Source: Hyphomicrobiales bacterium
GTDB lineage: Bacteria; Pseudomonadota; Alphaproteobacteria; Rhizobiales; Aestuariivirgaceae
Assembly: GCA_031417515.1 (NCBI GenBank)
Contig: JANOVS010000214.1
Coordinates: 13,871-77,870, forward strand
Direction of reading: 5' to 3'
DNA length: 64,000 bases
Shown: piece by piece, positions 32,966 to 57,244 of the stretch
How positions within the stretch are numbered: position 1 is the stretch's first letter
Layout: every line of letters begins with the position of its first letter
Notes under the pieces: generated by a model
Seen by the model: only the letters and a program-made list of their open reading frames with translations
The model's database searches: none
What the model was told of the DNA's origin: nothing
Made by a program: the position numbers and the translations under genes

Positions 32966-34528
32966 TCACCACACACCGTTGCCCGCACGCATGCGCTCTC
33001 TCGGCAAGATGATGTTGTAGTGCGCGCGGATATTTGCATCGACGTCTTCGCCGATGTGGCGGGGATAATGTTCCGTCAAGATCTTGCGCACCCGGTCGCG
33101 GGCGGGGGCACGGGCATCTTTCGCACCGGCCTGTTGCCACTCATTGGTGCTGCGCCGGCAGGCAATCTCGGGATATACATAATCGGTTTTCATGCGAGCA
33201 AGTGTTTGCGCGTGTCCCAGAAAATGGCCAGGTCCCATGACCGTGTCGCGGATGACGTCGAAGCTCAGCGTATCTTCGCTCACTTCAATGCCTTTCACTG
33301 TGCGCAGGATGGCACCCAGCAGATCATTGTCAATCACGTAACCTTCCAGCGTGGTGCCCATCAATGAAGCCTGCATGCCCGCACATTCATGGATCATCGT
33401 GGCGCCCGCATGGGCCGCGAGAGAAATGGTGTAGCCTTTTTCACCGCCACTCTGCGCGTCAGGCAGTTTGCTGTCGGTCATGCCGGCGGGAACAGAATTG
33501 GGAAGATCATAGAAATTTGCCATTTGCGCACAGGCCGCCGAAAGCAAAGCCTGTTCGCCAGAACCGCCTGACATGGCCCCCGTGCGCAAGTCAGACACAA
33601 AGGGCCAGGCAGCAAAGATGCCGCGGCAGTTGGGGTCAATGATATTGCACAACACAAGTCCTGCCAGAACCTCCGCACAAGCCTGCGCCACGGCGCCCGC
33701 CAACGCGGCAGGTGCTGTCGCTCCGGCTTGCCCGGCTGATACAAGCAAGATGGGCATGCCAGCGAGAACGGCGGCTTCCAGTGCGTCACAGCTTTCCGTG
33801 GCAAAGCGCATCGGCGGCACAACATGGCAGCACACGGCGGTGCAGAAGGGTCGCTCACGATGCTTACCCTCGCCGCCCGCTGCCGCATCCAACATGGGCT
33901 GCACAGCGCGGGCGCTATTGCCATCGGTATAGCTTACGGCGATGGATTTTGTCGTGCCTGCAAGGCAGGCATAGGTCGTGTTCATATCGAGGTCGTGAAT
34001 CGAGTTTGCATCGCGCGCCACGATGGAGCGGTGATACCAATGAATATTGTCGAGCTTGTCCACCAGCCGCGCAATGTCATAGAGATCGGCAACAGTGCTT
34101 TCGCGGTAAAGTCCCGTCTCAAAGTCCATGATGGTGGGTGCCGCACCGCCCGTGCCAGTGTGGACGCGCTTGCCGCCGATCTCGATATCATGGCGGGGAT
34201 CGAGTCCATGCAGCGTAAAGGAGCGCCGCGAGCGGGCAATCACATCTTCAACAAGGCCGCGCGGAAAATGCAGGCGGCCCTCATTGTCCATCCGGCATCC
34301 GGCTTCCACCGCGCGCCGCTCAAGGCTGGGCGTGATTTGCGACAGGCCAAGCTCTTCAAGCAACTGCAGCACCAGGTGATGAACGCGCAGAACTTCGCTG
34401 TCAGTCAAAGGCTTGTATCGGCCACCCACCATGCCGGGGGAGATGGGAGATATGGCTTTTAAAGGGTCAGCATCGGCACGCGGACGGCGACCGGTGCGGC
34501 GGGGGCTTTCGGTTGTGGCAACATTCAT
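32966..34528 (-). CDS. MttB-superfamily (trimethylamine methyltransferase-like) protein, non-pyrrolysine type
   Basis: 520 aa uninterrupted, with no in-frame TAG. The N-terminus ...GGRYKPLTDSEVLRVHHLVLQLLEELG and overall length are typical of MttB/MtgB homologs. Confidence 0.8.
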   Translation of the reverse strand: MNVATTESPRRTGRRPRADADPLKAISPISPGMVGGRYKPLTDSEVLRVHHLVLQLLEELGLSQITPSLERRAVEAGCRMDNEGRLHFPRGLVEDVIARSRRSFTLHGLDPRHDIEIGGKRVHTGTGGAAPTIMDFETGLYRESTVADLYDIARLVDKLDNIHWYHRSIVARDANSIHDLDMNTTYACLAGTTKSIAVSYTDGNSARAVQPMLDAAAGGEGKHRERPFCTAVCCHVVPPMRFATESCDALEAAVLAGMPILLVSAGQAGATAPAALAGAVAQACAEVLAGLVLCNIIDPNCRGIFAAWPFVSDLRTGAMSGGSGEQALLSAACAQMANFYDLPNSVPAGMTDSKLPDAQSGGEKGYTISLAAHAGATMIHECAGMQASLMGTTLEGYVIDNDLLGAILRTVKGIEVSEDTLSFDVIRDTVMGPGHFLGHAQTLARMKTDYVYPEIACRRSTNEWQQAGAKDARAPARDRVRKILTEHYPRHIGEDVDANIRAHYNIILPRERMRAGNGVW

Positions 34529-35063: not shown

Positions 35064-36053
35064 TCAAACCTTGACAGGTTTGCCGGTTTGCCACGACACG
35101 GTCGCCGCATCGGCCAATATGCCAGCTTGCAAGCCATCGAAGCCTGATGGCTTTGGATTGCGGTCGCCCGTCTCAACCGCATTGATGAACGTGTTAAGTT
35201 CGTTGGTGTAGGCTTGGAAATAGCGTTCGAGGAAGAAGTTCTGCACCGGGTCGGCTTGGGTGCCGTCGCCGTTGTGCAATTGCACCGTGGTGTTGTGCAC
35301 GTTGGCGGCGGTGAGCATGCCCTTTGAGCCATGCACTTCCATGCGCTGGTCGTAGCCGTAGGTGGCGCGGCGGGAATTGGTGATGACGGCGATGCGGCCT
35401 GAGGCGGTTTGCATTTGAACGGCTGCCGTATCCACGTCACCTGCTTCGCCGATGCCCTTGTCGACCAGCGATGAACCCAGCGCTTGCACCACAACAAATT
35501 CCTCGCCCATCAGAAAGCGGGCCATGTCGAAGTCGTGGATCATCATGTCGCGGAACAAGCCGCCGGAACCTGCCACGTAGGATGGCGGTGGCGGGTTTGG
35601 ATCGCGCGAAATGACTGTCACGATTTCAACTTCACCGACAGCGCCACCGCGGATACGGCGTTCGAGTTCGGCAAAGTTTGGATCGAAGCGGCGGTTGAAA
35701 CCGATCATCAAGGTGGACTTGTTCTTCTCCACCACTTTCAAAGTGGCGTGAATGGCTTCTACCGACAGCGACACCGGCTTTTCGCACATAATGGCTTTGC
35801 CGTTGTTCGATGCAGCCTGGATTTGCTCGGCATGAAAACCTGTGGGCGAGCCGATCAACACGGCATCCACGTCCTTTGACTTCATGATCTCGTCAACGGA
35901 AGCAACCTTGGCGCCATATTTCGCCGCCAATTCCGCAGCGGCGGCTGGCATGGCGTCCGCGATGTAGGCAAGTTTGGCCTTGGGGTTTGCAGCGATGGTG
36001 GCCGAATGCACTTTGCCAATACGGCCAGCGCCAATGACGCCAAATCTGATCAT
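35064..36053 (-). CDS. Gfo/Idh/MocA oxidoreductase, myo-inositol 2-dehydrogenase-like (IolG/IdhA/MocA)
   Basis: 329 aa. The motif MIRFGVIGAGRIGKVHS is present, and ...MCEKP and the C-terminal pattern match inositol dehydrogenases. Confidence 0.8.
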   Translation of the reverse strand: MIRFGVIGAGRIGKVHSATIAANPKAKLAYIADAMPAAAAELAAKYGAKVASVDEIMKSKDVDAVLIGSPTGFHAEQIQAASNNGKAIMCEKPVSLSVEAIHATLKVVEKNKSTLMIGFNRRFDPNFAELERRIRGGAVGEVEIVTVISRDPNPPPPSYVAGSGGLFRDMMIHDFDMARFLMGEEFVVVQALGSSLVDKGIGEAGDVDTAAVQMQTASGRIAVITNSRRATYGYDQRMEVHGSKGMLTAANVHNTTVQLHNGDGTQADPVQNFFLERYFQAYTNELNTFINAVETGDRNPKPSGFDGLQAGILADAATVSWQTGKPVKV

Positions 36054-36073
36054 GTTGTTCTCTCCAATTTTAT

Positions 36074-36191
36074 CTCCCTCCCCCTTGTGGGGAGGGCAGG
36101 GGTGGGGGTCGGGTGGTGTTTCTAATTTGGGAAGAAAAAATTCAAGTTCCGAGCGACCCCCACCCCGACCCTCCCCACAAGGGGGAGGGAG
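36074..36191. repeat. composite palindromic intergenic element (two 38-bp inverted arms, each itself a GC-rich hairpin)
   Basis: The left arm CTCCCTCCCCCTTGTGGGGAGGGCAGGGGTGGGGGTCG (36074-36111) matches the reverse complement of 36154-36191 at 36/38 positions. The inner CCCTCCCC..GGGGAGGG is self-complementary. Confidence 0.7.
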
Positions 36192-36213
36192 AAGTGGAGG
36201 GTCAGGATGGAAA

Positions 36214-37017
36214 CTATTTCGTCGCCATCAACTGCTTGAACTTGTCCATTTCGTCTTTCGGTGCCGCAACGATGTAGGGCTCAGATGGATAAGCGCCGGA
36301 TTGCACTTCATCGACAAAACTTTTGAATGCGCCGATGCGAATGTCCTGGATTTTCGCATATTCCTTGGCGAGGTCAGCGTATTTCTTGGAATGCCGCGGC
36401 ACTTTTCCGGTGTTGTATCCGAGCACATCGCAACCAAACAAATATTGGCAATCGCCGCCCTTGCCGCCGCCCATGGACACCAGAAACAGATTGGTGTGTT
36501 TGGCAATTCCCGCCGTCACCTCAGGTGGCACCACTTCGATTTCAACACCGAATGCACCAACCGCCTCATAACGTTTGCAGCGTTCATAAACTTGCATGGC
36601 GCTGTCTGCGGTTTTGCCCACACCTTTGAAACCGCCTGTCCAGGTGCAATAGTGGGGTACGAGACCCACATGGCCGATGACCGGGATGTAGTCTTTGGCC
36701 ATGCGCTCCACGGTATCGAACGATGCTGCGCAATAGACTGCATCTGCACCTGCTTCCATCATCTTGAAAGCCCAGCGCATATAGTCATCGACAGCGGCAG
36801 GCGCGCCATAAAGTGCCATGCCTGGCACAGCGAAAAGCGATGGGGCCACATCGCGGAAATGTTTTTGCACCAGCATCTCTGGCGGCACCGACACCATGTC
36901 GATGCCAGCAGCTTCTGCGGCTGCAAGCTCTTCCCACGTTTCGACGCGCATCATGGTGTATTGATATTTGCCCTTGTTGGCGCGAACATCAGCAACGGTC
37001 GGACGTTTCTTGGCCAT
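36214..37017 (-). CDS. PanB-like 3-methyl-2-oxobutanoate hydroxymethyltransferase family protein
   Basis: 267 aa. The N-terminus KRPTVADVRANKGKYQYTMMRVETWEELAAAEAAGIDMVSV and later GHVGLVP fit the ketopantoate hydroxymethyltransferase / PEP-mutase-superfamily TIM barrel. Confidence 0.7.
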   Translation of the reverse strand: MAKKRPTVADVRANKGKYQYTMMRVETWEELAAAEAAGIDMVSVPPEMLVQKHFRDVAPSLFAVPGMALYGAPAAVDDYMRWAFKMMEAGADAVYCAASFDTVERMAKDYIPVIGHVGLVPHYCTWTGGFKGVGKTADSAMQVYERCKRYEAVGAFGVEIEVVPPEVTAGIAKHTNLFLVSMGGGKGGDCQYLFGCDVLGYNTGKVPRHSKKYADLAKEYAKIQDIRIGAFKSFVDEVQSGAYPSEPYIVAAPKDEMDKFKQLMATK

Positions 37018-37020
37018 GAT

Positions 37021-38253
37021 TTATCCTTTGAGCAGGGCTTTGAGTTGAACAGTGGTATCGGCGAGAAGTTCGGGGGCAGGGCTGATGCCCTTGGCAATCA
37101 TCATCTCCGCCAGTTTCACGTCACGGGCAAAGACATTGCCAACACCAATGCCACTGGCTCCAATAAGGCGGCCAGTTTCGGTGAGATGAAACATCACCAA
37201 CGCACCATCGGCACCGTGGCGTGAAACGGTTACAGGCCCCATGTCTGGCATTCCCGCCACTTGCAGGGAGAGATCATATTGGTCCGACCAGAACCACGGC
37301 ATGTTGATATGGGCCTTGCTGCCACCCAGCATGTTTTCAGCAGCCGTTGCCGCCTGCTCCTGGGCGCTGCGCCACGCTTCGAGCCGGATCCGACGATTGC
37401 CAAAGCTGTGATGAATGAATGAGGCGCAATCACCGGCAGCGTAAATATCGGGATCGTTGGATTGCATTTCAGCCGAACAGGCAATGCCGTTGTCGATGGC
37501 AAGTCCTGCGGCTTCGGCCAGTTTGATTTCTGGTGAAGCGCCGATGCCCGCAATGATCGTGTCGGCTTCAACCACGCGGCCATTATTCAAATGCACCCCG
37601 GCTGTGCTGAGACTTGCAACACCGGTGCCGATGATCATCTCAACGCCAGCAGCAACATGTCGATCATGCACGATTTGCGCGATGGCCTCTGGCACGCCGC
37701 GCATCAGAATGCGGGGTTGTGCTTCAACCAGGAAGACCATGCAGCCGCGCTTGGCTGCCGACGAGGCGAGTTCAAGACCGATAAATCCACCGCCGATGAT
37801 GGCGATTCGTTTTCCAGGTTGGAATTTTCCCCGCAAGACTTCTGCGTCTTTGAAATCCCTGAGGGTGAGGGCCAATTCACCACCGGGGCATGATAGGCGG
37901 CGCGGCTTGGCGCCCGTGGCTAGCAAGAGTTTGTGATAGGGCAATACCTGGCCGTTGCTGAGCGCAACAGATTTCGCGGTGCGGTCAATTGATGTGACTG
38001 CCGAGCCGAGGATAGGCGTTACTTTCAGCGACGCAATAATACTGTCGTCAAGCAGCCAAACCGGCTGTGGCTCTGCTTCTTCCGTGATGGATGACTTTGA
38101 AAGTGGCGGCCGATCATAGGGCAGCAAAGCCTCTTCACTGATCAGCGTGATTGGGCCAGCGTAATCATTGGCGCGCAGGTTGATGCAAGCCCTGGCTCCC
38201 GCCATGCCGCCGCCCACAATGACCATTCCAATTTCGGGCCCAAACTCAGTCAT
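37021..38253 (-). CDS. FAD/NAD(P)-dependent ferredoxin reductase (MocF-like)
   Basis: 410 aa with two Rossmann motifs (MVIVGGGMAGA and IAIIGGGFIGLE) and YAAGDCA. Confidence 0.85.
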   Translation of the reverse strand: MTEFGPEIGMVIVGGGMAGARACINLRANDYAGPITLISEEALLPYDRPPLSKSSITEEAEPQPVWLLDDSIIASLKVTPILGSAVTSIDRTAKSVALSNGQVLPYHKLLLATGAKPRRLSCPGGELALTLRDFKDAEVLRGKFQPGKRIAIIGGGFIGLELASSAAKRGCMVFLVEAQPRILMRGVPEAIAQIVHDRHVAAGVEMIIGTGVASLSTAGVHLNNGRVVEADTIIAGIGASPEIKLAEAAGLAIDNGIACSAEMQSNDPDIYAAGDCASFIHHSFGNRRIRLEAWRSAQEQAATAAENMLGGSKAHINMPWFWSDQYDLSLQVAGMPDMGPVTVSRHGADGALVMFHLTETGRLIGASGIGVGNVFARDVKLAEMMIAKGISPAPELLADTTVQLKALLKG

Positions 38254-38254
38254 T

Positions 38255-38569
38255 TTAGCTAATGTCGATCAGGATTTTGCCATTCTCAATCTTCACGGGG
38301 TAGACGCGCAAGTTGATGCAGGCGGGCGCACCCTTGGCAGCTCCCGTGGTGTAGTCGAAACGTCCATTGTGCTTGGGGCACTCAATGGTGTGGTCCATCA
38401 CCAGGCCATCGGCCAAATGAATTTTCTCGTGGGTACAAAGGCCATCGGTGGCGTAGTATTTGTCATCCGGTGAGCGATAGATGGCGTAGGTTTTTCCGGC
38501 GTGGTCAAAGCGCGCCACATCTTCATTGTCCACGTCATCAGCGTTGAGGGTTTCAATCCATTGGGTCAT
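38255..38569 (-). CDS. Rieske [2Fe-2S] ferredoxin (MocE-like)
   Basis: 104 aa from the ATG at 38569. The Rieske motif is CTHEKIHL...CPKHNGRF. Confidence 0.85.
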   Translation of the reverse strand: MTQWIETLNADDVDNEDVARFDHAGKTYAIYRSPDDKYYATDGLCTHEKIHLADGLVMDHTIECPKHNGRFDYTTGAAKGAPACINLRVYPVKIENGKILIDIS

Positions 38570-38579
38570 GTTAAATCCT

Positions 38580-39695
38580 TTATTCGGCTGCCTTGGCCAT
38601 GCCTTGGCCATGCAGGTCGGGTCGGTAGGGTTTGGCAGACTTCGGCAATTCGCGCAGCAGAAAATAATCTTCGCCGCCCATCTGCCGCCTCCATGCCGGA
38701 ATCATTTCCATGTAGCACGCCCACATGGAAGGCGTTGGCGCGGGCAGATCATGCTTGAGCAGTTCATGCAAGCGGGGCAGGGCATGATAAGGGACCATGG
38801 GAAACATGTGGTGCTCCACATGATAGTTCATGTTCCAATAGATGAAACGCGAAATTGGATTGATAAAAACAGTCCGCGAATTCAACCGGTGATCAAGCAC
38901 ATTGTCGGCAAGCCCCCCGTGTTGCATCAACCCGGTCAACACATGGTGCCAGGCACCATAAAGCCGCGGCAGACCAATCAGCAAAAATGGCAAGATCGAG
39001 TTTGTATAGTATGCAACTGCAACGGTCGCCGCATAAACGACAACCCAAACCCGAGCCACCAGAATGACCTTGTGCCATTCCATCTCAGGGATAAAGGTTT
39101 TTTCATCGGCGGAGATTTTACCACTGGCATTGATGACCATCATCTTCATGGCCTCCCAGGCATCCAACACACCCACATAGGCCAACAAAACCTTGATCAA
39201 GACAGGAGGGCGCATGACAGCGATTTCCGGATCAAGCCCGACGATGACTGTATCCGTGTGATGGCGCGTGTGGCTCCAGCGCCAGCGGGTGGGATTGCGC
39301 ATGATCATGAAGCAGGCGATGTGATAAACCCAATCATTCATCCAGGCTGTTTTGAACGCTGTGCCATGGCCGCATTCATGCCAGCGTGAATCGGTGGCTG
39401 AGCCATAAAGCACCCCATAAGCCAACAGGGGCAGGGCAGCCCACCAGCTCGGCCAAAGATAAATAGCGAGACCCGCAAACACCATCATCGCCCCAAGCCA
39501 AATCACCGTATCGCGAATGGCCGGACCATCTGATCGCTTCATCAGCACTTTCAGTTCTTTGCGCGGAATCTCGGTGTGATACCATGCAGCGGATTTCAAC
39601 CCGTCCATCACGGCCTTGTCGGCCTCTGCACCAATCAGGCCATAGTCACGATGTCCATAGTTGGCTGTGGGCGAAACCGCAGTCATGACGCGCAT
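38580..39695 (-). CDS. membrane di-iron oxygenase of the fatty-acid-desaturase/hydrocarbon-oxygenase family (MocD-like)
   Basis: 371 aa with three His boxes (HECGHG, WSHTRHH, HVEHHMFP) and TM segments. Confidence 0.85.
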   Translation of the reverse strand: MRVMTAVSPTANYGHRDYGLIGAEADKAVMDGLKSAAWYHTEIPRKELKVLMKRSDGPAIRDTVIWLGAMMVFAGLAIYLWPSWWAALPLLAYGVLYGSATDSRWHECGHGTAFKTAWMNDWVYHIACFMIMRNPTRWRWSHTRHHTDTVIVGLDPEIAVMRPPVLIKVLLAYVGVLDAWEAMKMMVINASGKISADEKTFIPEMEWHKVILVARVWVVVYAATVAVAYYTNSILPFLLIGLPRLYGAWHHVLTGLMQHGGLADNVLDHRLNSRTVFINPISRFIYWNMNYHVEHHMFPMVPYHALPRLHELLKHDLPAPTPSMWACYMEMIPAWRRQMGGEDYFLLRELPKSAKPYRPDLHGQGMAKAAE

Positions 39696-39743
39696 CCTTG
39701 TTTGATGACAGGCTTTTAGAATGCTTGTGTCTTTGGGGCAATG

Positions 39744-39775
39744 TTGATATGATGGTTTTTATCATCTCATATCAA
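39744..39775. promoter_or_regulatory. inverted repeat TTGATATGA-N14-TCATATCAA, candidate operator
   Basis: 9-bp perfect arms sit in the AT-rich divergent region between the oxygenase operon and the LacI-family gene. Confidence 0.3.
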
Positions 39776-39809: not shown

Positions 39810-40832
39810 ATGGTGAAACGTCCGACATTGACTGACCTTGCCGCTGCCGCGGGCGTCAGTATTGCGACGGTGGACAGGGTTATTAACCGGAGACTTCCCG
39901 TTACTGATGATACGGCGCAACGCGTCGTCAAAGCCGCCGAGTCAATTGGCTACCACGCGACGAGTCTGCTGAAGCGTCGAATAGCCGAAACACCAGTTCG
40001 CCGTTTTGGATTTTTGCTGCAAAAGAAATATGCATTTTATGAGAATTTTGGCCAGGAACTTTTGGCTGCCACAAAATTGGCCCGCGACATTGAAGGCAAG
40101 CCGCTGCTGGAGTTCATGGAGGACCTAGACCCCGGTTTTATCGCAGCCCGCATTGAAGCAGTTGCCGCCAAGGTTGATGCTCTGGCCATGGTTGCCATGG
40201 ATCATCCCCAGGTCATTCAGGCCGTTGAGAAAGTCTCAGCCCAAGGCAAACCCGTCTTCACCTTGTTGAGTCCACTCAGCACCGAAGCCATATCAGGCCA
40301 TCTCGGACTGGATTCGCGCAAATGCGGGCGCATTGCAGGTTGGGCCATTAGCCGCATCGTCAAATCGCCGGGCAAGATCGGCATACTCGTCGGCAGCCAT
40401 CGCTATCTCAACCACGAAATCTCAGAAATCAGTTTCCGCGCCTACATGCGTGAACATGCCCCGCAACATCAACTGATGGAACCCATCGTCAATCTGGATG
40501 ATGAGCGCATCGCCTATGAAGCCGTTTCCAGCATGTTGAAAACCTACCCCGACCTTCGCGCCATCTACGTGGCAGGCGGCGGACAAGACGGACTGATCAA
40601 GGCATTGCGCGAGATTGCAGGCCGGGAGCGGCCGGTGGCCGTGTGCAATGAAGTTACACCCACCACCCGTGCCGCCTTGCTGGATGGCATCATAGACCTG
40701 ACATTGGCCACACCCATTGCTTCTCTCGCAACGCGCACGGTCAACAACATGATGGCGGCCTGCGACGAACGGCGCATTTCACCCCAGCAATGTTTTGTAC
40801 CGCCCGAGATTGTGGTGAGCGAAAATCTTTAA
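39810..40832 (+). CDS. LacI-family transcriptional regulator
   Basis: The N-terminal HTH is PTLTDLAAAAGVSIATVDRVIN, followed by a periplasmic-binding-protein-like sugar-binding fold. Confidence 0.9.
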   Translation: MVKRPTLTDLAAAAGVSIATVDRVINRRLPVTDDTAQRVVKAAESIGYHATSLLKRRIAETPVRRFGFLLQKKYAFYENFGQELLAATKLARDIEGKPLLEFMEDLDPGFIAARIEAVAAKVDALAMVAMDHPQVIQAVEKVSAQGKPVFTLLSPLSTEAISGHLGLDSRKCGRIAGWAISRIVKSPGKIGILVGSHRYLNHEISEISFRAYMREHAPQHQLMEPIVNLDDERIAYEAVSSMLKTYPDLRAIYVAGGGQDGLIKALREIAGRERPVAVCNEVTPTTRAALLDGIIDLTLATPIASLATRTVNNMMAACDERRISPQQCFVPPEIVVSENL

Positions 40833-40840: not shown

Positions 40841-41557
40841 TCAAATCAAGAACGATGGTGAAGCTGCATTCGTTACAACAATCTCACCACATGTTGCACC
40901 CCACGCCGTGAACCTATCGCGCAGCATGACCAGGGATTGCCGACAAGGCTCGACGTGGACGGGGAGTGCAGCTTCAGAAAAAAACAGGGCGCTGTCTGAT
41001 TCTTCAGTGAGACACGTCAACTTGCTGTCACGGCTGTTGAAGCCCCAGCACAACACATCATCCTGAGACGCATAAACAACAAGTGACGGATTGAGCGGAA
41101 ATGCAGCGGCATCACCGCCAAGGGGATCAAACTTGTCAGTCGACACCTCAGCTTTGCGCAACTGGATTTGGTGATGCGCCCCAAGCCTGTCAACATCATA
41201 GGCCCCCATCGGTGCCTTTGCCATGATGGAACAGGCATTGTAGAGATTGACGGCGGGAACCGGGATGGCAAGCTCGCCTTTCTTGGCGGCACGGCGCAGC
41301 AGGGCCTCAATGCTGGAGCGAAACTTGGAGGGCTTCACACCCATCAGGCCATAGGCCTCGCGCCACCCTGCAATCTGCGGCTCTTCAACCACGCGCTCGG
41401 GATCAAGAGTGCAAGCTGCCACTGCTTGTGCAAGCAACACATCAGCCTTGCCGTCACCCAATGCAGTTCTCATGTTTGTAACACGCAAACCAAATACAGT
41501 CAGGGCCGGATATGTATCAAACAAATCACGGGCACATGAAAATGTGAAATCGGTCAT
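40841..41557 (-). CDS. stand-alone B3/B4 (PheT-like tRNA-binding/editing fold) domain protein
   Basis: 238 aa from the ATG at 41557. The pattern ...IAGWREAYGLMGVKPSKFRSSIEALLRRAAKKGELAIPVPAVNLYNACSIMAKAPMGAYDVDRL is typical of B3_4 domain proteins. Confidence 0.65.
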   Translation of the reverse strand: MTDFTFSCARDLFDTYPALTVFGLRVTNMRTALGDGKADVLLAQAVAACTLDPERVVEEPQIAGWREAYGLMGVKPSKFRSSIEALLRRAAKKGELAIPVPAVNLYNACSIMAKAPMGAYDVDRLGAHHQIQLRKAEVSTDKFDPLGGDAAAFPLNPSLVVYASQDDVLCWGFNSRDSKLTCLTEESDSALFFSEAALPVHVEPCRQSLVMLRDRFTAWGATCGEIVVTNAASPSFLI

Positions 41558-41632
41558 TATCAAATTCCAAAAAGCAAAAGGCCCGTCAGCGCGACGGGCC
41601 TTTGATGTCATGTCGCCAGGGGCGTCCTACCA

Positions 41633-42661
41633 TCACAGCGGCACGTGTTGCAATGTTTTGGTGCGAATCGGGCCTGCCTTGTATTTCTCGTCATGCACCA
41701 TCAACAACTTGTGCACCCGGTGATGATGCCGCGCCGAAATGTTGGGAAACATGTGGTGGACCTGATGGTAGCCGTCATTCCACGGATGCCAGAGAAGATG
41801 GTGGATCAGTCCGTCATTGGTGTAGGTCGATTCAAATTCCGTTTCGCCGCGTTCATAGTCATGCTCTTCAGCTTCGGCTATCGAACGCAAAACCGGCAGG
41901 CTGACAAGCATGGGAACCAGCCAGAACAAAACCCACATCAAAAATGCCCGCTCAACGTTAAAGATCAATGACAGGGGAAGGACAAACACAACCAGGTGCC
42001 ACAAGGCCCAAGACCCAAGCATGCTCAAAGATTTGCTGCCGATCTCTGTATAATACACCATGTTGTATTGTGGCAGCCAACGCAACACGGCCCGCATGAT
42101 GGCCCATTTGGTTGACAGATCCACTTCCCCCAGACCCATAGATGCAAAGCGCCGCTTGCAAGGATCTTGTTCGCCGGCATAGGTGCCATGATGGATGAAA
42201 TGGCCTTTGCGATAGGTTTCAACTGTTCCCATTGTCGGGTAAGAAACAAAGCAATTGGCAATCCGGTCATTGATGTGTTTTTGTTCTTTTTGCCAGCACC
42301 AATGGGAAGCATCATGGACCATCAGTTCGAGCCCCCTGATCTGCCGCGCAATCAACAGAAGTGACACGGCATAGCAAACCGCTCCCGCCAAAACATTCAT
42401 GCGCCATACTGATATGCACAGAACCGCGACGGCTACAATAGATGCAAAATAAAGTACGCAATCCAAAAGACTGCCCCACAGCGAGGTCTCTTCAAAGGCT
42501 TTCAAGCGGGATTGCACGGGTTCTGGGAGGTGATTTGTGGAATAGCCTCGGCTCATGCCGCGTCGGCGAACTGGCTTGGCTTTGCCAACATGCACTTCTG
42601 CGGAAGCATTGGTTCCGTCCCCAAGCGGAAATTCCCGCACCCAACCATCGTTCATACGCAT
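41633..42661 (-). CDS. second fatty-acid-desaturase-family membrane oxygenase
   Basis: 342 aa with His boxes HDASH, HFIHH and HQVHHMFP. Confidence 0.8.
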   Translation of the reverse strand: MRMNDGWVREFPLGDGTNASAEVHVGKAKPVRRRGMSRGYSTNHLPEPVQSRLKAFEETSLWGSLLDCVLYFASIVAVAVLCISVWRMNVLAGAVCYAVSLLLIARQIRGLELMVHDASHWCWQKEQKHINDRIANCFVSYPTMGTVETYRKGHFIHHGTYAGEQDPCKRRFASMGLGEVDLSTKWAIMRAVLRWLPQYNMVYYTEIGSKSLSMLGSWALWHLVVFVLPLSLIFNVERAFLMWVLFWLVPMLVSLPVLRSIAEAEEHDYERGETEFESTYTNDGLIHHLLWHPWNDGYHQVHHMFPNISARHHHRVHKLLMVHDEKYKAGPIRTKTLQHVPL

Positions 42662-42963: not shown

Positions 42964-44205
42964 ATGAGCATTGAACCAAAAACAGAATCAAGCATTATCA
43001 AGAGCTGTTTCAAAAGCAGTGACTTGGCCCAATCAGCGCAGCTGCAACTTACGACACCGCTCTATACTTCCCATCCAGTTTCGTCGTTGGGCCAAAATAT
43101 TCTGGCGGTTCACAACCGAATAGGCGGAATGTTGACGGTCATAGCTGAGCAAGCAGAAGTTCCAGTTGCATCGGTATTGGCAATCTGGCTGGTCGAAAGC
43201 GGGCCCTATGGCTTTCAGGAAAAGCGCCCGTTGTTGCGCTTTGAAGTTCATAAATTCTGGCAGCATTGGGGCAGTGCCAACAGCGGGGTGTTTGAAAGAC
43301 ATTTTCAGTTCGGCGGCAATGGCGGAATTTCGGGAAGCAGCTGGAGCAATCATAAATTTCTCGATCCGTTAACATCAGAATGGCGATCCTTCCATGGCGA
43401 TCAAGTGAAGGAATACCAGGCATTTGAATTGGCCAGCGCATTGGCTGACCGTGAATTGGCTTGCCTCTCATGCAGTTTCGGCGGTCCACAAATCCTCGGT
43501 TCCAACCATGGCAAACTGGGCTATGAAACTGCCCGTGAAATGTTTACGGCATTCGCTCAATCAGAGCGCTGGCATGTCTGCGGTTTCTTTGACTTTTGCC
43601 AAAGCCACGGTCTGCTCGAAACCTTGCGGAACGGTGACTGGCACCAGTTTGCCAGAATATACAACGGACCCGGGCAAGCCGAAACCTACGCCGAACGGAT
43701 CAACACGGCCTATCAAGCAAGCGCAGCACTGCTGAAGGGACTGCCTGAACCAATTGAAGATTTTGATTTCGCAGCCTTCACATCATTTTTCCAGACACTC
43801 GGCGTGAAGAATTTCAGGCCTCACGAATTTCTGTTCAGGGGAAGCGCGCATAGCACAATGACCCATATCGCCTATGGTTTGAACTCCCTGCCACCCCCAG
43901 AATTCTGGCCCAACATAGCGGCATTGGCGCAGCTCCTTGATCAGGTGAGGCACAGGACCAATGCGCCCATCATACTCACCAGTATCTATCGCAATGCCGC
44001 TTACAACACTGCCATAGGCGGCACACCCGCAAGTACACACATGCGGTTTGCAGCCGTCGACTTCCAAATCAAAAACGGTTCAACCCCGCCACAATGGTGT
44101 GCCATGTTGCGTGAATTGCGCCGGGAGGGCTTGTTTACGGGCTGTATCGGACCACACGAAGATGCTGTTCATCTCGATTTGCGGCCGGAAAACGTGGATT
44201 TCTGA
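42964..44205 (+). CDS. two-domain cell-wall hydrolase: N-acetylmuramidase (PF11860-like) + peptidase M15 (zinc D-Ala-D-Ala carboxypeptidase-like)
   Basis: The muramidase part has RFEVHKFW, CSFGGPQILGSNH and GDWHQFARIYNGPGQAETYAERI. The M15 part has SIYRNAAYN...STHMRFAAVDF...AVHLD (H-x6-D...H). No signal peptide is present. Confidence 0.8.
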   Translation: MSIEPKTESSIIKSCFKSSDLAQSAQLQLTTPLYTSHPVSSLGQNILAVHNRIGGMLTVIAEQAEVPVASVLAIWLVESGPYGFQEKRPLLRFEVHKFWQHWGSANSGVFERHFQFGGNGGISGSSWSNHKFLDPLTSEWRSFHGDQVKEYQAFELASALADRELACLSCSFGGPQILGSNHGKLGYETAREMFTAFAQSERWHVCGFFDFCQSHGLLETLRNGDWHQFARIYNGPGQAETYAERINTAYQASAALLKGLPEPIEDFDFAAFTSFFQTLGVKNFRPHEFLFRGSAHSTMTHIAYGLNSLPPPEFWPNIAALAQLLDQVRHRTNAPIILTSIYRNAAYNTAIGGTPASTHMRFAAVDFQIKNGSTPPQWCAMLRELRREGLFTGCIGPHEDAVHLDLRPENVDF

Positions 44206-44215: not shown

Positions 44216-45184
44216 TCAACTCAGATATTTTACATCGACCAAAAATCGATTGGCCTTCTCGGTCATTCCGGGTTCTTCAAATCGGTCATTCACCCATCCC
44301 AGGTAAGTCAGGCTGCGCAACAGCATCATCAAAGGCAATGCATCCAAATCAACAGTCTTCAATGGCTTGTATTTCAAATACCCCTGCAAAAGTGCATCAC
44401 GCAGTGAGCCATAGTCCGGTTCATGAATGTTCTTGATCAAGGCTGTCGCCACATCAAACATGCGGTAGCCAAAACCGGAATCATCAAAGTCGATAAAATG
44501 CACATCTGAACCATCGACGAGAATATTTTCGCGGGCAAGATCAGCATGGATCAATCCCATGTCGGCGCCTTGCCGCTCGTAGATATCCAAACCCAGTGAA
44601 CAATCACTGCGCAATTTGCAAAGCCATTCAAGGTCTGTCATCGAAAGATTTGCGCATTCCCAAAACCGTCCCCAAAAAGGCTGCGGCCCCACCAGCCCAT
44701 TTCGATCCCAAGAAGGGCGCTGAAACTGCCTGGATGGTTGCCAGCTATCGGTGAGCAAGTGAAGTTGCGCCAGCTTCGCCCCGATCTCTCGCATCAAATC
44801 CAATCGCTGGCGGCCTTTGTGCTGCAACGGCTTGTGAGAAGCGCCAAAGGGCAGGCCCGGTAACCAACTCAGCAAACTGAAAAGGCGATCCGCGCCAGCT
44901 GCATTTTTCTGCCGGTATACAAGACCACCGGAACGCGTGACCGCTGGTTGGGGGGCTACAAATCCCTTGCCTGACAACATGGCCATCCATTCCAGTTCCG
45001 AACGGATCACGGCCTCGCTGTGGTAACCCGCCCGATGCAGACGCAACGCATGGGGGCCGTCTACCGTATCAACTTTGAAAACAATATTCTCCCGCTGCAT
45101 GACCAACACGGGAGAACCCGTGATGATCGGCCAATGTTGGGCAGCACTAAATGCAAGATCAAGAGCTACGGCTGGATCCATCAA
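44216..45184 (-). CDS. APH/homoserine-kinase-II-type phosphotransferase (hydroxylysine-kinase-like)
   Basis: The Brenner motif is LIHADLARENILV, followed by FIDFDDSGFGYRMFDVA. Its start overlaps the stop of the upstream aminotransferase gene. Confidence 0.8.
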   Translation of the reverse strand: MMDPAVALDLAFSAAQHWPIITGSPVLVMQRENIVFKVDTVDGPHALRLHRAGYHSEAVIRSELEWMAMLSGKGFVAPQPAVTRSGGLVYRQKNAAGADRLFSLLSWLPGLPFGASHKPLQHKGRQRLDLMREIGAKLAQLHLLTDSWQPSRQFQRPSWDRNGLVGPQPFWGRFWECANLSMTDLEWLCKLRSDCSLGLDIYERQGADMGLIHADLARENILVDGSDVHFIDFDDSGFGYRMFDVATALIKNIHEPDYGSLRDALLQGYLKYKPLKTVDLDALPLMMLLRSLTYLGWVNDRFEEPGMTEKANRFLVDVKYLS

Positions 45185-46470
45185 ACTGCCGCGAACACAT
45201 CATCGAGAGTAGACATCAGGATATCAGCTTCTGCGACGCCAAACTGCAGGGGCGGCCGGATTTTCAAAACACTGTAATCATGACCATTGCTGCCCATCAA
45301 CACACCCCGCTGCCGCATCTCATTGACGATTTTGTCGGTGGCTTGTCGCGCTGATGCTTTGGTCTTGCGATCACTCACAAGTTCAACACCAATAGCCAAA
45401 CCAGATCCACGCACGTCGCCAATCAGATCATGCTTGTGGGAAAGTCTCCGTAGCCCATTCAATATATGTATTCCAGTCGCCGCTGCTTTTGATTGCAAAT
45501 TCTCCTGTTCCAAAACATCCAGCACTGCGCTGGCCGCCGCACAGGAAACCGGATTGCCGCCAAACGTGTTGAAATATTTGAAGGCGTGGCGAAATTCCGA
45601 CATCAATTCGAATGACGTGGCCACTGCCGCAACCGGATGCCCATTGCCCATGGGTTTTCCCATGGTCACGATATCGGGCTTCAGCCCAATGCGCTCATAT
45701 CCCCAGAAATGACTGCCGGTGCGCCCGAATCCGGGCTGCACTTCATCGGCAATAATGACGCCACCATATCGTCGTACGATGGCAGCGGCCCGATCAAGAA
45801 ATCCGAACGGCAAATCCGGAAAACCTTCATTCACAAAAAACGGACAGAGGATCATGCCTGATACGCCATGCCCAGCTTCGACCAAAGACAAGCAGGCATT
45901 TTCAACTTCATTGGCAAATGCCATCGCAAAATCTTCGCCTTTCGCCTCACCGAAGGGACGATAGGAATCCGGTGCCGGCACATGGCGCACATGGGATGAA
46001 AATCCACCCAGCGGTGGCGACGTGGTTGAGAGCTGCGAAACAGAAGAAGTATTGCCATGGTAGGTGTGATTGGTGGCAATGATCCCGGTTTTTCCGGTCG
46101 TGGCTTGTGCCATGCGAAGGGCAATGTCATTGGCCTCGCTGCCAGTGCACACCATGATGGCCGTTGTAATGCCATCGTGCAGCTTGGCTGTCAGGCGTTC
46201 CACATAGTCCAGGATGCCTTCGTGCAGGTAGCGCGTGTGCGTGTTGAGTTGCCCGGCCTGTTTGCAAATCGCCTCGACAACATGGGGGTGGCAGTGGCCG
46301 ACATGCGGCACATTGTTATAGCAATCGAGAAATTTTCGTCCACTGGCATCGTAAACCCAGGTGCCTTCGCCCCTGACAAGGTGCAGGGGGGCATCATAAA
46401 ACAGTCGCACATTCGGGCCCAGTAGTTTGGCGCGGCGATCAAGCAGTTTTTGGTTTTGTGAGGTGATCAA
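45181..46470 (-). CDS. class-III PLP enzyme of the AGXT2L/phospho-lyase type
   Basis: 429 aa. The N-terminus has ...FLDCYNNVPHVGHCHPHVVEAICKQAGQLNTHTRYLH, as in ethanolamine-phosphate / 5-phosphohydroxylysine phospho-lyases. DEVQPGFGRTG and TMGKPMGNGHP (PLP Lys) are also present. Confidence 0.8.
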   Translation of the reverse strand: MITSQNQKLLDRRAKLLGPNVRLFYDAPLHLVRGEGTWVYDASGRKFLDCYNNVPHVGHCHPHVVEAICKQAGQLNTHTRYLHEGILDYVERLTAKLHDGITTAIMVCTGSEANDIALRMAQATTGKTGIIATNHTYHGNTSSVSQLSTTSPPLGGFSSHVRHVPAPDSYRPFGEAKGEDFAMAFANEVENACLSLVEAGHGVSGMILCPFFVNEGFPDLPFGFLDRAAAIVRRYGGVIIADEVQPGFGRTGSHFWGYERIGLKPDIVTMGKPMGNGHPVAAVATSFELMSEFRHAFKYFNTFGGNPVSCAAASAVLDVLEQENLQSKAAATGIHILNGLRRLSHKHDLIGDVRGSGLAIGVELVSDRKTKASARQATDKIVNEMRQRGVLMGSNGHDYSVLKIRPPLQFGVAEADILMSTLDDVFAAV

Positions 46471-46606
46471 AGTTGGACGTCCAGCAAAAGAGATGTGAGT
46501 TTGGAACTATTGCCTGAAACAGGCTGAGCCGCAACTTTGATTGCAGGGCGTGCTTGATCTTGCGCCAATCAAATGGCTAGACTGGGAAAAAGCAAAGGGA
46601 GCAATC

Positions 46607-47071
46607 ATGGCAGGCAAAATTCTGGCGGACCTAAAGGCGGCAGGCATCGAACTGCCAGCCGCCGCCATTCCCGTGGCCAACTATGTGCCCGTGGTTCTGA
46701 GTGGCAACCAAGCCTTTGTCTCCGGACAAGTATCCATGTGGAACGGCGAAGTCAGGCATGTCGGTCGCCTCGGCCAAAACGTCAGCATTGAACAAGGGCA
46801 AGACGCCGCAAAACTTTGCGGCCTGAACATCATTGCCCAATTGCAATTGGCTCTCGGCGATCTGGACCGGGTTGTCCGCTGTATCAAGCTCAACGTTTTT
46901 GTGAACTCGACTCCAGATTTTACGGATCAGCCTAAAGTCGGTAATGGTGCATCCAATCTGATGGTGCAGGTTTTCGGTGAAACCGGAAAGCATGCCCGCG
47001 CCGCTGTGGGCGTGGCCCAATTGCCGTTTGGCGTGGCGGTTGAGGTGGATGGTGTGTTCGAGTTTCGCTGA
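46607..47071 (+). CDS. RidA/YjgF family protein
   Basis: 154 aa from the ATG at 46607. It has ...NQAFVSGQ... and the C-terminal ARAAVGVAQLPFGVAVEVDGVFEF. Confidence 0.8.
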   Translation: MAGKILADLKAAGIELPAAAIPVANYVPVVLSGNQAFVSGQVSMWNGEVRHVGRLGQNVSIEQGQDAAKLCGLNIIAQLQLALGDLDRVVRCIKLNVFVNSTPDFTDQPKVGNGASNLMVQVFGETGKHARAAVGVAQLPFGVAVEVDGVFEFR

Positions 47072-47081
47072 GTAAACCAGC

Positions 47082-48368
47082 TCAAATTCTGGCGTCGCGC
47101 AGATCAGCGAAATAAGTGTCACTGCCCAATTGGCCACCCTTCAGCGCGAGTTCAATGCCATTTAATTCGGCATTTGAACTATGGGTCATGCACATGGGTG
47201 AACCAGGTGTTTCCCGGATCGGTCGTCGAAGCGTCAGGGCATGCACATCGAGTTGCAAAACCGCATGGCTGGAACTGTCACCACCAGCAATGATGGCGCG
47301 GCGGATATTGGTTTTCTCCAATAGTTGACGAAGGATTTGGCCAAGACGTTCGCCAATTTTTTGGCGTGCGTCTGGTATCGTATTCAACTCGTGGCCTGCA
47401 TCGCTGGCGCTTCCAAGTGCTGTATGGATGAGCGGGCTTCGTCCCGTGCCGAGTACCATAAGTGCAGAATCAACGCATCGCTGTTGAAGCTGTCCATCAT
47501 CATCGCTGGCCAGTGCCATGGCTGAAACAGGCAGGGCCTCAAAGCCTTGCAATTGTGCTTGCCGGATTTGTCTCTCCGTCGTGGGTGAAACACTGCCAGA
47601 AACCACAATGGTTTGTGCGCAAGGTTGCAAAGGTTCAAAGGCAAGGGTGCGCAACTGTGGATCACTGGCGGCTGCCATGGCTCTTGCCAATGCATATTCA
47701 ACGCCTGAGGATCCGGCGATGAACAGCGATAGATCATGATGCAGTGCCAACAATTTTTGCCCCGCCGACAACTGGCTAGCCATGTCATGCACATCAAGTA
47801 AACCGATGCCGTGATCCGGCCAGCCATCACCTGCCAGCGAAATTGGCATGTTGGTTTGACGGGCCAGATGCAGCCGCAGATCAGCTTCATCCATGGGTGT
47901 CACCGGGTGGCGCGCCATCACAGGATGACGGTCGATGCGGTGCACTTGGCCTTGATAAGCAGCAAACAGATGCCCCGCAAATGTATAGCGCTTGAGTTGC
48001 GGTGCCCCCACCAACAGAGGTATCATCGATTGATTGAAAACCTTTGCCCCAATCTCAATCGCCCGCCCGATATTGCCGACATTTGGGCTGGAATCAAAAG
48101 TTGAACAAACTTTGTAATGATTGAATTTCGAATCCAGCGAACGCAACCATTCAAACAACGGCGGCAAATGTGCATTCATCCATGCAGGTGATTGGCTGCG
48201 GCTGCTGCCCGCCAATCCCACACCGGGAAACTGTGAGAAAGGTGCAAATTCCAGGGCAGTTGGAATGCGCGTAAATAAAACGGTCTCGATGCCATGCAGT
48301 CCCAATGACTCCATGACATCAGTCGAGCCGGTAAAATCATCGCCATAAAAACTGATCAGCCTGGTCAT
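47082..48368 (-). CDS. four-carbon acid-sugar kinase family (DUF1537, OtnK/OiaK-like)
   Basis: The N-terminus is ISFYGDDFTGSTDVMESL, in a 428-aa two-domain layout. Confidence 0.85.
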   Translation of the reverse strand: MTRLISFYGDDFTGSTDVMESLGLHGIETVLFTRIPTALEFAPFSQFPGVGLAGSSRSQSPAWMNAHLPPLFEWLRSLDSKFNHYKVCSTFDSSPNVGNIGRAIEIGAKVFNQSMIPLLVGAPQLKRYTFAGHLFAAYQGQVHRIDRHPVMARHPVTPMDEADLRLHLARQTNMPISLAGDGWPDHGIGLLDVHDMASQLSAGQKLLALHHDLSLFIAGSSGVEYALARAMAAASDPQLRTLAFEPLQPCAQTIVVSGSVSPTTERQIRQAQLQGFEALPVSAMALASDDDGQLQQRCVDSALMVLGTGRSPLIHTALGSASDAGHELNTIPDARQKIGERLGQILRQLLEKTNIRRAIIAGGDSSSHAVLQLDVHALTLRRPIRETPGSPMCMTHSSNAELNGIELALKGGQLGSDTYFADLRDARI

Positions 48369-49630
48369 GCGCCGCTTCCATCTGAAAAATGTGCAATGGA
48401 CTGGGCGAGTTCCGCATGTTGCCTGGCGTATTCCGGCAAGGGCACACCTGCCACTGCAGCTTCCCAGGCTTGCCGCACGGCCTTGACGCCAGCACCAGCG
48501 CCACCCGGATGTGAAACAATCCCGCCACCACAGAGATACATCAAGTCCACACTGCGGCCCGTGCGCTCAAAAGTATCGGGCGCCTGTCCGCCCCACTGTC
48601 CAGAACCGGCAACCGGAAGAGCGCAATCGCGGGGTTCAAACAAGGGCGTTGAAACCGCATGGAATGAGGCGACGAAACTTTCATCAGGCTCCCAATATTT
48701 TACCCGGATGCCGTTGATCTGAAACTGGTCAACTCCCAACAAACGCCAGAATTGCTGCCATACCTTGAAATCCATGCCTAGGCCCGGATGGCGCGTCAGC
48801 ATATCCCAACCATTGCGGTGCGCATGCAACACCAACCCGCTGCGCTTGCGCAAAAACGCCATGGCGCCAAAACCGATGGAATTGATATTGACGACGGCGC
48901 AATTGCCACCGTGTTTCATGACAATGTCATGGTTGCGCATCATCTCATCAGGATCAGTGGCCGAGATGCCCCACGCATACATGATTTTTTTGCCAGTCTT
49001 TTGCTCACGCTCATGAATCATCGGCATGATGGCCTTCACCCGCGCTTCAAGCGGTGAATAAACCGGTGACATCAGCTTTTCATCATCCTTGATAAAATCC
49101 ACATCGGCATCGATCACTTGTTTTACCAACGCCGCAGTCTCAGGCGGGCGCAAACCCAGTGCTGGTTTGATGATCGTGCCAATGATCGGGCGATCATGAA
49201 CCCCCGTCAATTGGCGACTACCAGCTACACCAAATTGCGGGCCAGGCCACGCCTTGCCAAAGGCCGGCGGCAGTTTCATGTCAACCACGCGAATGCCGCT
49301 GAAGCCCTTGATGGCGAATACACCACCAATGGCTATTGTCATTAAAGCAGCCAGATCGGTGCCAATAGCTTCAAATGGAAAAGCGATATCAGCCTCCGCC
49401 CGATTGAACGGACCTGAATCGACCGTCGGAAATGATGGTATCGCTGCAGCAGTTAAACTGCGCATGGCCATCACCCGGGCAGCGACACGATTTTTCAATT
49501 CCTCGGTTTCGCCGGGCACGGCCACAAAGGTTCCCGTCGATTGATCACTGGCAATTTTTTCAGCCAGTTTCTCCGGACTTCCCGGCGTTTCGATGAGATA
49601 GGTGAGGATTATTTGGCTATCATATGACAT
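48365..49630 (-). CDS. RuBisCO-like protein (form IV large-subunit homolog)
   Basis: 421 aa from the ATG at 49630. It has DVDFIKDDE (equivalent of the carbamylated-Lys motif), HAHRNG, and a C-terminal GGGIVSHPGG. No small-subunit or cbb genes are nearby. Confidence 0.85.
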   Translation of the reverse strand: MSYDSQIILTYLIETPGSPEKLAEKIASDQSTGTFVAVPGETEELKNRVAARVMAMRSLTAAAIPSFPTVDSGPFNRAEADIAFPFEAIGTDLAALMTIAIGGVFAIKGFSGIRVVDMKLPPAFGKAWPGPQFGVAGSRQLTGVHDRPIIGTIIKPALGLRPPETAALVKQVIDADVDFIKDDEKLMSPVYSPLEARVKAIMPMIHEREQKTGKKIMYAWGISATDPDEMMRNHDIVMKHGGNCAVVNINSIGFGAMAFLRKRSGLVLHAHRNGWDMLTRHPGLGMDFKVWQQFWRLLGVDQFQINGIRVKYWEPDESFVASFHAVSTPLFEPRDCALPVAGSGQWGGQAPDTFERTGRSVDLMYLCGGGIVSHPGGAGAGVKAVRQAWEAAVAGVPLPEYARQHAELAQSIAHFSDGSGA

Positions 49631-49634
49631 CGAA

Positions 49635-50672
49635 TTAACCCAGCAATTCTTCAAGAAAAACCGTGCGGCTTTCCGCAGCGGATTGATACACGGCTTCAAC
49701 AAGCGCAAAGGTTTTCAGATTGTCGCGGCCCGATGTTTCAGGTTGGCGACCCTGCAACAGGCAATCCACCCAATGCTGCTGGATCAATGAAACACTTTCT
49801 TGAATGTTATGCCAAGGCTTTGAGGCCCAAGACAAGACGGGCGGCGACACATCAGTCTTCGCCGTTGCACCTTTTCGTGTGACGTTGAGTTGATAGCCGG
49901 CACCTAGTCGAAGTGAACCAAGACTGCCATCAATCTCGATCAGCGTTTGCGGAAATAACTCATTCTCCAACTGCGTGGCATAAGAACAATCCACGATGGA
50001 AGCCACACCTTGTCCGTGATCAAGCAAGATGGTGGCAACATCTTCACCCTTGATTTGGGGGTTCACTCGTTTGATCCGTGCACTGACGTTTAAGGCATCT
50101 CCGAGGAGAAAACGCGCCACATCCAGTGCATGAATGCCGAGATCTTCAACAATAAACCGCTTGCCCTCGGCAAGATAGGGTTGGCCTGGAAACACATCAT
50201 AAGCCGAGCGGAAAGAAACCCGACCCCAAAACACCTCGCCTATCACACCTGACGAAATCACTTTTTTGACCGCTTGAATGGGCGATTGCCAACGGAAATT
50301 CTCGTGCACCATCATGCGAACGGAAGCCTTCTCACAGGCCACCACCATGGCCTTGGCATCAGACAAAGTTGGAGCTATCGGCTTTTGACAAATCACATGC
50401 ACACCGTGCCGCGCCGCCAATTCCACCAAGGCCCGGTGACTGGGTGCTGTTGTGGCAATGTCAACAAAATCCAGCTTTTCAGCCGCCAACATTTCATCAG
50501 CATCGGCATAGCGCTGCGCAATGGAAAACTGCTCACCGACAGCCGAAAGACGATCTGCATTCTGATCGCAAATAGCCACAATTTCGGCACCCCTGGCATC
50601 CCGCCAGCCATGCAGATGGTTGATGGAGAAAAACCCGCAACCAATCAAACCACCTCGCAATTTTCGAGACAT
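49635..50672 (-). CDS. Gfo/Idh/MocA family oxidoreductase
   Basis: 345 aa from the ATG at 50672. It has LRGGLIGCGFFSINHLHGW and ICQKP. It lies 4 nt upstream of the RLP gene. Confidence 0.85.
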   Translation of the reverse strand: MSRKLRGGLIGCGFFSINHLHGWRDARGAEIVAICDQNADRLSAVGEQFSIAQRYADADEMLAAEKLDFVDIATTAPSHRALVELAARHGVHVICQKPIAPTLSDAKAMVVACEKASVRMMVHENFRWQSPIQAVKKVISSGVIGEVFWGRVSFRSAYDVFPGQPYLAEGKRFIVEDLGIHALDVARFLLGDALNVSARIKRVNPQIKGEDVATILLDHGQGVASIVDCSYATQLENELFPQTLIEIDGSLGSLRLGAGYQLNVTRKGATAKTDVSPPVLSWASKPWHNIQESVSLIQQHWVDCLLQGRQPETSGRDNLKTFALVEAVYQSAAESRTVFLEELLG

Positions 50673-57207: not shown

Positions 57208-57244
57208 GGGGATTTGGGGTAAATGTTGTGGATTGCCATAGCGT

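Follow-up and report, generated by a model that had tools for sequence, protein, structure and literature searches.

What compound is consumed by the operon at positions 35064-39695 of the DNA described here, a 64-kb stretch (called the window throughout) of contig JANOVS010000214.1 from a Hyphomicrobiales bacterium, is the question which this locus raises. The original prediction had read on the minus strand the genes for a membrane oxygenase, a Rieske ferredoxin, a ferredoxin reductase, a PanB-like protein and an inositol-dehydrogenase-like protein, with a divergent gene for a LacI-type regulator, and had suggested that a methylated cyclitol, possibly one other than rhizopine, is demethylated by their products. 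Pinitol, ononitol and other methylated inositols rank high in abundance among the soluble carbon compounds which legumes, conifers and plant litter contain. A literature search for a characterised bacterial pinitol or ononitol (methyl-inositol) demethylase found none, and the single bacterial study of pinitol, in an Erwinia, tested only vanB genes.

In our analysis, six open reading frames (ORFs) were found at the expected coordinates, five of them forming the minus-strand operon and one being the divergent plus-strand LacI gene, and the predicted gene order was borne out by the Pfam and NCBIfam matches. The operon genes are spaced by 1-10 nt, with the exception of a 160-nt spacer ahead of iolG. 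All six genes are under strong purifying selection in comparison with the nearest relative of the window, L003 (ratio of nonsynonymous to synonymous substitution rates, dN/dS, 0.04-0.11; dS 0.7-1.7). We consider it probable that this is a LacI-repressed catabolic operon for the oxidative O-demethylation of a methyl-cyclitol, followed by oxidation of the product by IolG, in which the repressor responds to the cyclitol. The substrate would most likely come from plant debris and be an O-methyl-inositol, for example ononitol, sequoyitol or pinitol. The window sequence is present in freshwater sediment metagenomes, and the closest genomes for the oxygenase are uncultured Hyphomicrobiales and Aestuariivirga metagenome-assembled genomes (75-88% identity).

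Oxygenase system, dehydrogenase and regulator

The first gene of the operon (38580-39695, minus strand) encodes a MocD-like membrane di-iron (His-box) oxygenase of 371 amino acids, the catalytic component of the system, with a Pfam FA_desaturase match of 2.8e-33. Its His boxes (H106ECGH, H142TRHH and H292VEHH) were found to be invariant among 86 relatives, and hydrophobic segments lie at about residues 60-100, 158-183 and 210-242. The protein shares 69.9% identity across 356 of its 371 residues with MocD of the mos/moc locus on pSymA of Sinorhizobium meliloti T073 (L086), and it falls within the MocD clade in the phylogenetic tree. The AlphaFold2 model of the oxygenase has a predicted local distance difference test (pLDDT) score of only 65; a Foldseek search of the PDB with this model gave no meaningful match (nothing beyond one subunit of the algal Ycf2-FtsHi complex, with E about 1e-3, and neither AlkB nor SCD1), and a sequence search of the PDB with the oxygenase gave no match.

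The ferredoxin gene (38255-38569, minus strand) encodes a Rieske [2Fe-2S] protein which belongs to the curated MocE family (TIGR02377 MocE_fam_FeS, 173.1 bits against a cut-off of 136.15) and is 66.0% identical to MocE of T073. The CTH...CPKH motif read in it earlier is present as CTHEKIH and CPKHNGRF. Its ORF is open to 38611, and the start is probably the internal ATG at 38569, giving 104 amino acids, because in the long ORF the Pfam domain is matched only from residue 17 onwards and the relatives are of about 104 amino acids. After a gap of 1 nt from its stop codon begins the gene for the MocF-like FAD/NAD(P)H ferredoxin reductase (37021-38253, minus strand), which has Pyr_redox_2 (1.1e-64) and Reductase_C domains in Pfam, is HcaD/AndAa-like in NCBIfam and shares 47.0% identity with MocF of T073. 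The likeness to a MocDEF triad has thus held for all three components. In the related loci L004, L012 and L083, the oxygenase, MocE and the PanB-like gene are kept and the reductase gene is missing from the operon; the reductase, unlike the PanB-like gene a part that these operons have not kept, is therefore either dispensable or has another source.

A His-box membrane oxygenase is also found in XylM/XylA and in the AlkB-type hydroxylases, families in which methyl groups are hydroxylated with electrons from NAD(P)H. In the window, the electron carrier is a free Rieske ferredoxin, whereas rubredoxin or a fused plant-type ferredoxin reductase serves in those systems. The substrate context here is also different, being that of hydrophilic cyclitols, and no usable match to the solved structures was obtained.

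The last gene of the operon (35064-36053, minus strand) encodes an inositol 2-dehydrogenase of the IolG type. It reaches 426.9 bits over its full length with the IolG equivalog TIGR04380 (cut-off 355) and carries the N- and C-terminal GFO_IDH_MocA domains of Pfam. In the nearest relatives IolG is 92-96% identical and its gene always stands immediately after the PanB-like gene. Its identity with the authentic MocA of L086 is only 30.6%. The earlier assignment to the Gfo/Idh/MocA family, with an inositol-dehydrogenase-like character, is correct in this respect, whereas the parallel drawn with MocA does not extend to orthology; by these profile scores and identities the enzyme is a genuine IolG.

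The spacer between the PanB-like gene and iolG contains a GC-rich nested palindrome (36074-36191) with two perfect inverted copies of the 19-bp sequence CTCCCCACAAGGGGGAGGG, at 36076-36094 and 36171-36189, for which the chance expectation is 0.01; no further copy was found in the window. It could be an element resembling the repetitive extragenic palindromic (REP) type, an RNA-stability signal or a partial terminator. On the other side of iolG, 536 nt downstream, lies a gene for a non-pyrrolysine MttB-family methyltransferase (32966-34528), of which a 95% identical copy is also found downstream of iolG in the related locus L017.

The regulator (39810-40832, plus strand) is a member of the LacI/GalR family, with a LacI helix-turn-helix domain (PF00356, 6.1e-12) and a Peripla_BP_4 sensor domain (PF13407, 2.4e-25). 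The inverted repeat noticed earlier at 39744-39775, between the divergent genes, is real, and its core is the 17-bp palindrome ATGAT-N7-ATCAT at 39749-39765, the sole perfect copy in the window. Six further sites with one mismatch are present in the window, all within long ORFs and in a number not clearly above chance. The consensus ATGATAGAA..CTATCAT, with at most one mismatch, was found in 33 of the 61 regulator-oxygenase intergenic regions, in several genera, and in 0.5% of shuffled sequences. Just downstream of the palindrome, the pair (C/G)ATTGCC-N15-17-TTCTA(A/T) is shared by the window, L003, L004, L009, L012 and L013. No promoter was called by a consensus sigma-70 scan of the intergenic region; from its conservation, the pair (ATTGCC ... 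TTCTAA at 39716-39741, minus strand) is the probable promoter of the operon. The regulator probably binds the palindrome beside this promoter and would be released by a cyclitol. Such LacI regulators have been placed in the FixV group; for many rhizobia, Sullivan et al. (2013) described mocD operons with a divergent gene for a FixV-like LacI regulator, and they argued that these regulators sense an inositol derivative (PMC3538637).

Relation to the rhizopine locus

The T073 locus was found through a MocD homologue among the plasmid matches. Its moc genes comprise an IolE-like mocC, a binding protein and a Gfo/Idh/MocA dehydrogenase (mocBA), a divergent GntR-aminotransferase mocR, and mocD, mocE and mocF. 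On the opposite strand are a DegT-type aminotransferase with a NifT domain (mosB), an MFS transporter (mosC) and a three-subunit GMC dehydrogenase (mosDEF). By these surrounding mos and moc genes, L086 is identified as a genuine rhizopine locus. After mocF it also carries a PanB-like gene and then purU (12731-14487 of L086), which lie outside the classical mocCABRDEF description.

The rhizopine MocDEF system, described for S. meliloti L5-30 and Rhizobium leguminosarum and read here in T073, has the same three components in the same order as the window, with a ferredoxin of the MocE family and a PanB-like gene after the reductase in both. The differences lie around this core. MocR, MocA, MocB, MocC, purU and the mos genes are all absent from the window, so that the expected lack of mocB, mocC and mocR extends to mocA as well; a LacI-type regulator with the ATGAT-N7-ATCAT palindrome stands in the place of MocR and its 'moc boxes', and the dehydrogenase is IolG. 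Moreover, the window belongs to a Hyphomicrobiales bacterium of freshwater sediment and not to a legume symbiont. On this gene content, the window locus is not a rhizopine locus, though its oxygenase is of the Moc family.

A LacI-linked copy of the module is also present on pSymB of S. meliloti 2011 (L084), and its MocD and MocE are 96-97% identical to the authentic rhizopine proteins of T073. The mocDE DNA is 95.7% identical (L086 9986-11431 against L084 8995-10428), and the genes which follow are less similar: mocF shows 76% identity in DNA and 78% in protein, and the PanB-like protein 85%. The difference is suggestive of recent copying or gene conversion confined to mocDE. In the MocD tree the authentic MocD and the pSymB copy are sisters inside the Sinorhizobium group, and the tree as a whole tracks taxonomy, with groups of Mesorhizobium, Aminobacter, Phyllobacterium, Rhizobium and Sinorhizobium and an Aestuariivirga-like group which holds the window. 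The LacI-linked module would thus be the old, vertically inherited form. Because of the 96-97% identity in S. meliloti, rhizopine catabolism appears to have borrowed this older LacI-controlled module, its oxygenase being a recent copy, and in S. meliloti the LacI-linked module and the rhizopine demethylase are essentially one enzyme. The O-demethylation of rhizopine with one-carbon release is reportedly known from genetics only, in work said to be that of Bahar in 1998.

PanB-like protein

The fourth gene of the operon (36214-37017, minus strand), which starts 3 nt past the reductase stop, encodes a PanB-derived protein with a partial Pfam Pantoate_transf match restricted to profile positions 79-259. 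It is annotated everywhere as 3-methyl-2-oxobutanoate hydroxymethyltransferase. Its scores are far below the curated PanB cut-offs (TIGR00222, 82 bits against 207.55; NF001452, 101.6 against 272). The fold is that of PanB: the AlphaFold2 model has a pLDDT of 86, its best PDB match is PanB 1oy0 with a TM-score of 0.68-0.73, and the top 28 PDB matches are all PanB (TM-score 0.58-0.73). In E. coli PanB (1M3U), we take D45, D84 and E114 to be the Mg2+ site, K112 to bind the substrate and E181 to be catalytic. In the alignment, the window protein has P, G, Y and A at the positions of D45, D84, K112 and E114. These replacements are not individual, as all 51 cluster-linked copies have G84 and Y112, A or S at 114 and a residue other than D at 45, and the same signature is shared by the 50%-identity subfamily representatives (about 249 clusters, E < 1e-30).

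In comparison to PanB of E. coli (1M3U) and Mycobacterium tuberculosis (1OY0), therefore, the protein has the same fold (TM-score 0.65-0.73) and keeps H136, E181 and the G-x-G...D-x-Q segment, whereas the Mg and substrate residues are replaced and the loop with the GDS motif, about 19 residues, is deleted. Its gene sits in sugar operons and not beside panC. To judge from these residues, it cannot be a normal PanB, that is, a ketopantoate hydroxymethyltransferase. The gene is not peculiar to the window, as the authentic rhizopine locus has one whose product is 50.8% identical to that of the window. The linkage of this gene to an oxygenase expected to release carbon at the formaldehyde level, and to purU and folD in other genomes, suggests that the PanB-derived protein may hand the released one-carbon unit to tetrahydrofolate.

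Conserved neighbourhood and probable substrate

Oxygenase homologues are abundant in public data, with 7916 scored matches, thousands of them close, and with 288 plasmid records mostly from Rhizobium and Sinorhizobium. Neighbour shares were counted over the 56 loci with full flanks. LacI was found in 54 of them (96%), MocE and MocF in 98% each, a MocB-like sugar-binding protein with its permease in 64%, and the PanB-like gene, IolG and a xylose-isomerase-like (IolI-like) TIM barrel in 55% each; purU is present in 14% and folD in 4%. At least one of IolG, the TIM barrel and the binding protein occurs in 52 of the 56 loci, and authentic MocB shares 58.9% identity with the binding protein encoded in the LacI-linked clusters. 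When the other neighbouring ORFs were clustered, only lineage-specific flanks were obtained, such as cobalamin genes and DUF1402.

Individual plasmids show how these parts are combined. A Marivivens plasmid carries the oxygenase, MocE, the PanB-like gene, the TIM barrel, an ATP-binding cassette (ABC) transport system, iolG and iolC; a plasmid of the betaproteobacterium Burkholderia carries LacI, a xylose-isomerase-like gene, the TIM barrel and iolG opposite the three oxygenase genes. In an R. etli plasmid, the oxygenase, MocE and the PanB-like gene are followed by the ABC system without a reductase, and in R. rosettiformans folD and purU flank the transporter. In Pseudomonas syringae pathovars of woody hosts, the same cluster has been described next to a 'xylose isomerase'. 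With the LacI-linked rhizobial clusters (R. etli p42e, S. meliloti pSymB, R. leguminosarum, Mesorhizobium), in which the regulator is FixV-like, the window shares the divergent LacI-oxygenase arrangement, the palindrome family, the PanB-like gene and the orthology seen in the tree. Most of those clusters carry the TIM barrel and/or a MocB-like ABC transporter by the regulator, whereas the window does not, and in the clade of the window IolG is joined into the oxygenase operon.

By homology with the genetic model of rhizopine catabolism, the chemistry of the operon can be proposed as follows. The FAD reductase would take electrons from NAD(P)H and deliver them to the Rieske ferredoxin, from which they would reach the membrane di-iron oxygenase, and this enzyme would hydroxylate the O-methyl carbon. 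Collapse of the resulting hemiacetal would give free inositol and a one-carbon unit at the formaldehyde level. The inositol would be oxidised to inosose by IolG and enter the ordinary iol pathway, the PanB-derived protein would probably move the one-carbon unit onto tetrahydrofolate, and FolD and/or PurU, in the many genomes where they are encoded alongside, would oxidise this unit to formate.

The expectation of a methylated cyclitol other than rhizopine gains support from the linkage to IolG in the window and, elsewhere, to the TIM barrel, the MocB-like ABC transporter, iolC and purU/folD. In the window itself, the simplest substrate could perhaps be a methyl-myo- or methyl-scyllo-inositol, because no isomerase-like TIM barrel is nearby and only demethylation and IolG would be needed. 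Further, the homologues of R. mesoamericanum are induced by Mimosa root exudate, of which pinitol is the main component (PMC5789663).

Some observations weigh against the demethylation of a methyl-cyclitol. The induction in R. mesoamericanum was weak (1.5-2.1 fold) and the exudate is a mixture (PMC5789663). A review of 2026 calls the role of the non-rhizopine mocDEF clusters unresolved, and the literature gives no in vitro assay for the enzyme family and no substrate for any LacI-linked copy. The window and L003 are without the dedicated ABC transporter and TIM barrel beside the regulator; the genes found there encode a B3/4-domain protein, a second desaturase-family protein and a muramidase, and the sister lineages L004-L008 have the transporter at this place. 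The oxygenase can do without the PanB-like gene, which is missing from 45% of the loci. A literature search for a characterised bacterial pinitol or ononitol (methyl-inositol) demethylase found none, and the single bacterial study of pinitol, in an Erwinia, tested only vanB genes.

The gap in the literature on LacI-linked substrates leaves room for action of the oxygenase on some other small carbohydrate, with IolG oxidising the product. A methylated monosaccharide or glycoside, or a deoxy-cyclitol in need of hydroxylation, would then be the substrate, the candidates including 3-O-methyl or 2-O-methyl sugars of plant and algal polysaccharides. The linked transporter is of the generic CUT2 ribose/galactose type and some relatives stand beside xylose-isomerase-like genes or a glycoside hydrolase, which would fit with such a substrate. 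We nevertheless judge it unlikely, as the dehydrogenase scores above the IolG equivalog cut-off, iolC is adjacent in Marivivens, the linked binding protein resembles authentic MocB, and in S. meliloti the enzyme is nearly the same as the rhizopine oxygenase, which acts on a methyl-cyclitol. The linkage to purU, folD and the PanB-like gene also argues for one-carbon release over plain hydroxylation.

Assignment of the window locus to the rhizopine-type moc loci might also be considered, since the oxygenase, ferredoxin, reductase and PanB-like protein are all orthologous to proteins of the authentic locus. This is very improbable in view of the missing MocR, MocA, MocB and MocC, the LacI-type regulator and the low identity of IolG to MocA; moreover, rhizopine is not expected in freshwater sediment, and a tree which follows taxonomy indicates an old resident gene and not an acquired moc locus. 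The chances are slighter still that the product of the first gene is a desaturase or hydroxylase of the acyl-lipid or carotenoid type which modifies membrane lipids, the place of the gene beside sugar genes being a coincidence. The Pfam FA_desaturase assignment is accompanied by weak matches to DesB (26.6 bits) and DesA (19.1 bits), which are far from the NCBIfam equivalog cut-offs of 500; the gene is translationally packed with those of a soluble Rieske ferredoxin and a reductase, and its synteny with LacI and inositol genes is kept in Alphaproteobacteria and on the Burkholderia plasmid. Low similarity to MocDEF together with orthology to lipid desaturases had been named beforehand as the outcome that would speak against the original prediction, and neither was found.

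The cluster type is known and common and the LacI/FixV link has already been published (PMC3538637), so that the window locus is an ordinary further member, one of thousands alike, and its worth is that of an assay candidate and not of a surprise. As a clean and compact non-rhizobial example from freshwater sediment, it helps to define a conserved core of regulator, palindrome, three-component oxygenase, PanB-derived protein and IolG. Two points may be unpublished: that the PanB-derived gene belongs to the module, in authentic rhizopine loci too, and that mocDE are nearly identical to the pSymB genes. Should the PanB-derived protein indeed connect the oxygenase with the folate pool, it would represent a new way of handling formaldehyde. 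A broader reading can be put forward only tentatively, and we would sooner expect it to fail than to hold as a whole: that the module of LacI, MocDEF and the PanB-like protein is a general bacterial route for the demethylation of plant cyclitols, that the PanB-derived protein, with the metal and 2-oxo-acid site of PanB lost and the remainder of the barrel kept, is a new formaldehyde-to-tetrahydrofolate enzyme feeding FolD and PurU, and that rhizopine catabolism is a very recent offshoot with mocDE copied from the module.

The MttB, B3/4 and second desaturase-family genes were found in none of the 56 fully flanked loci and for this reason are not counted in the system. The B3/4-domain protein and the second desaturase-family oxygenase (40841-42661) form an arrangement common to L003 only and are under purifying selection; the best NCBIfam match of this oxygenase is the arginine hydroxylase GntB, at 69.5 bits and far under the cut-off. 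The muramidase (42964-44205) is a fusion with an M15 peptidase, with no phage genes nearby and 69% identity in L003. Two CUT2-type sugar ABC transporters, one of them with a DeoR regulator, lie at 53742-63060, 14-23 kb from the operon; these systems (53.7-58.4 kb and 59.6-63.1 kb) were considered as orthologues of the MocB-like transporter and rejected, their binding proteins being at most 31.6% identical. Between them and the muramidase, an unrelated cluster of sugar-acid style (44216-50702) encodes an APH-family kinase with a class-III aminotransferase, a four-carbon acid-sugar kinase (SBD_N/NBD_C), a RuBisCO-like protein and another Gfo/Idh/MocA dehydrogenase.

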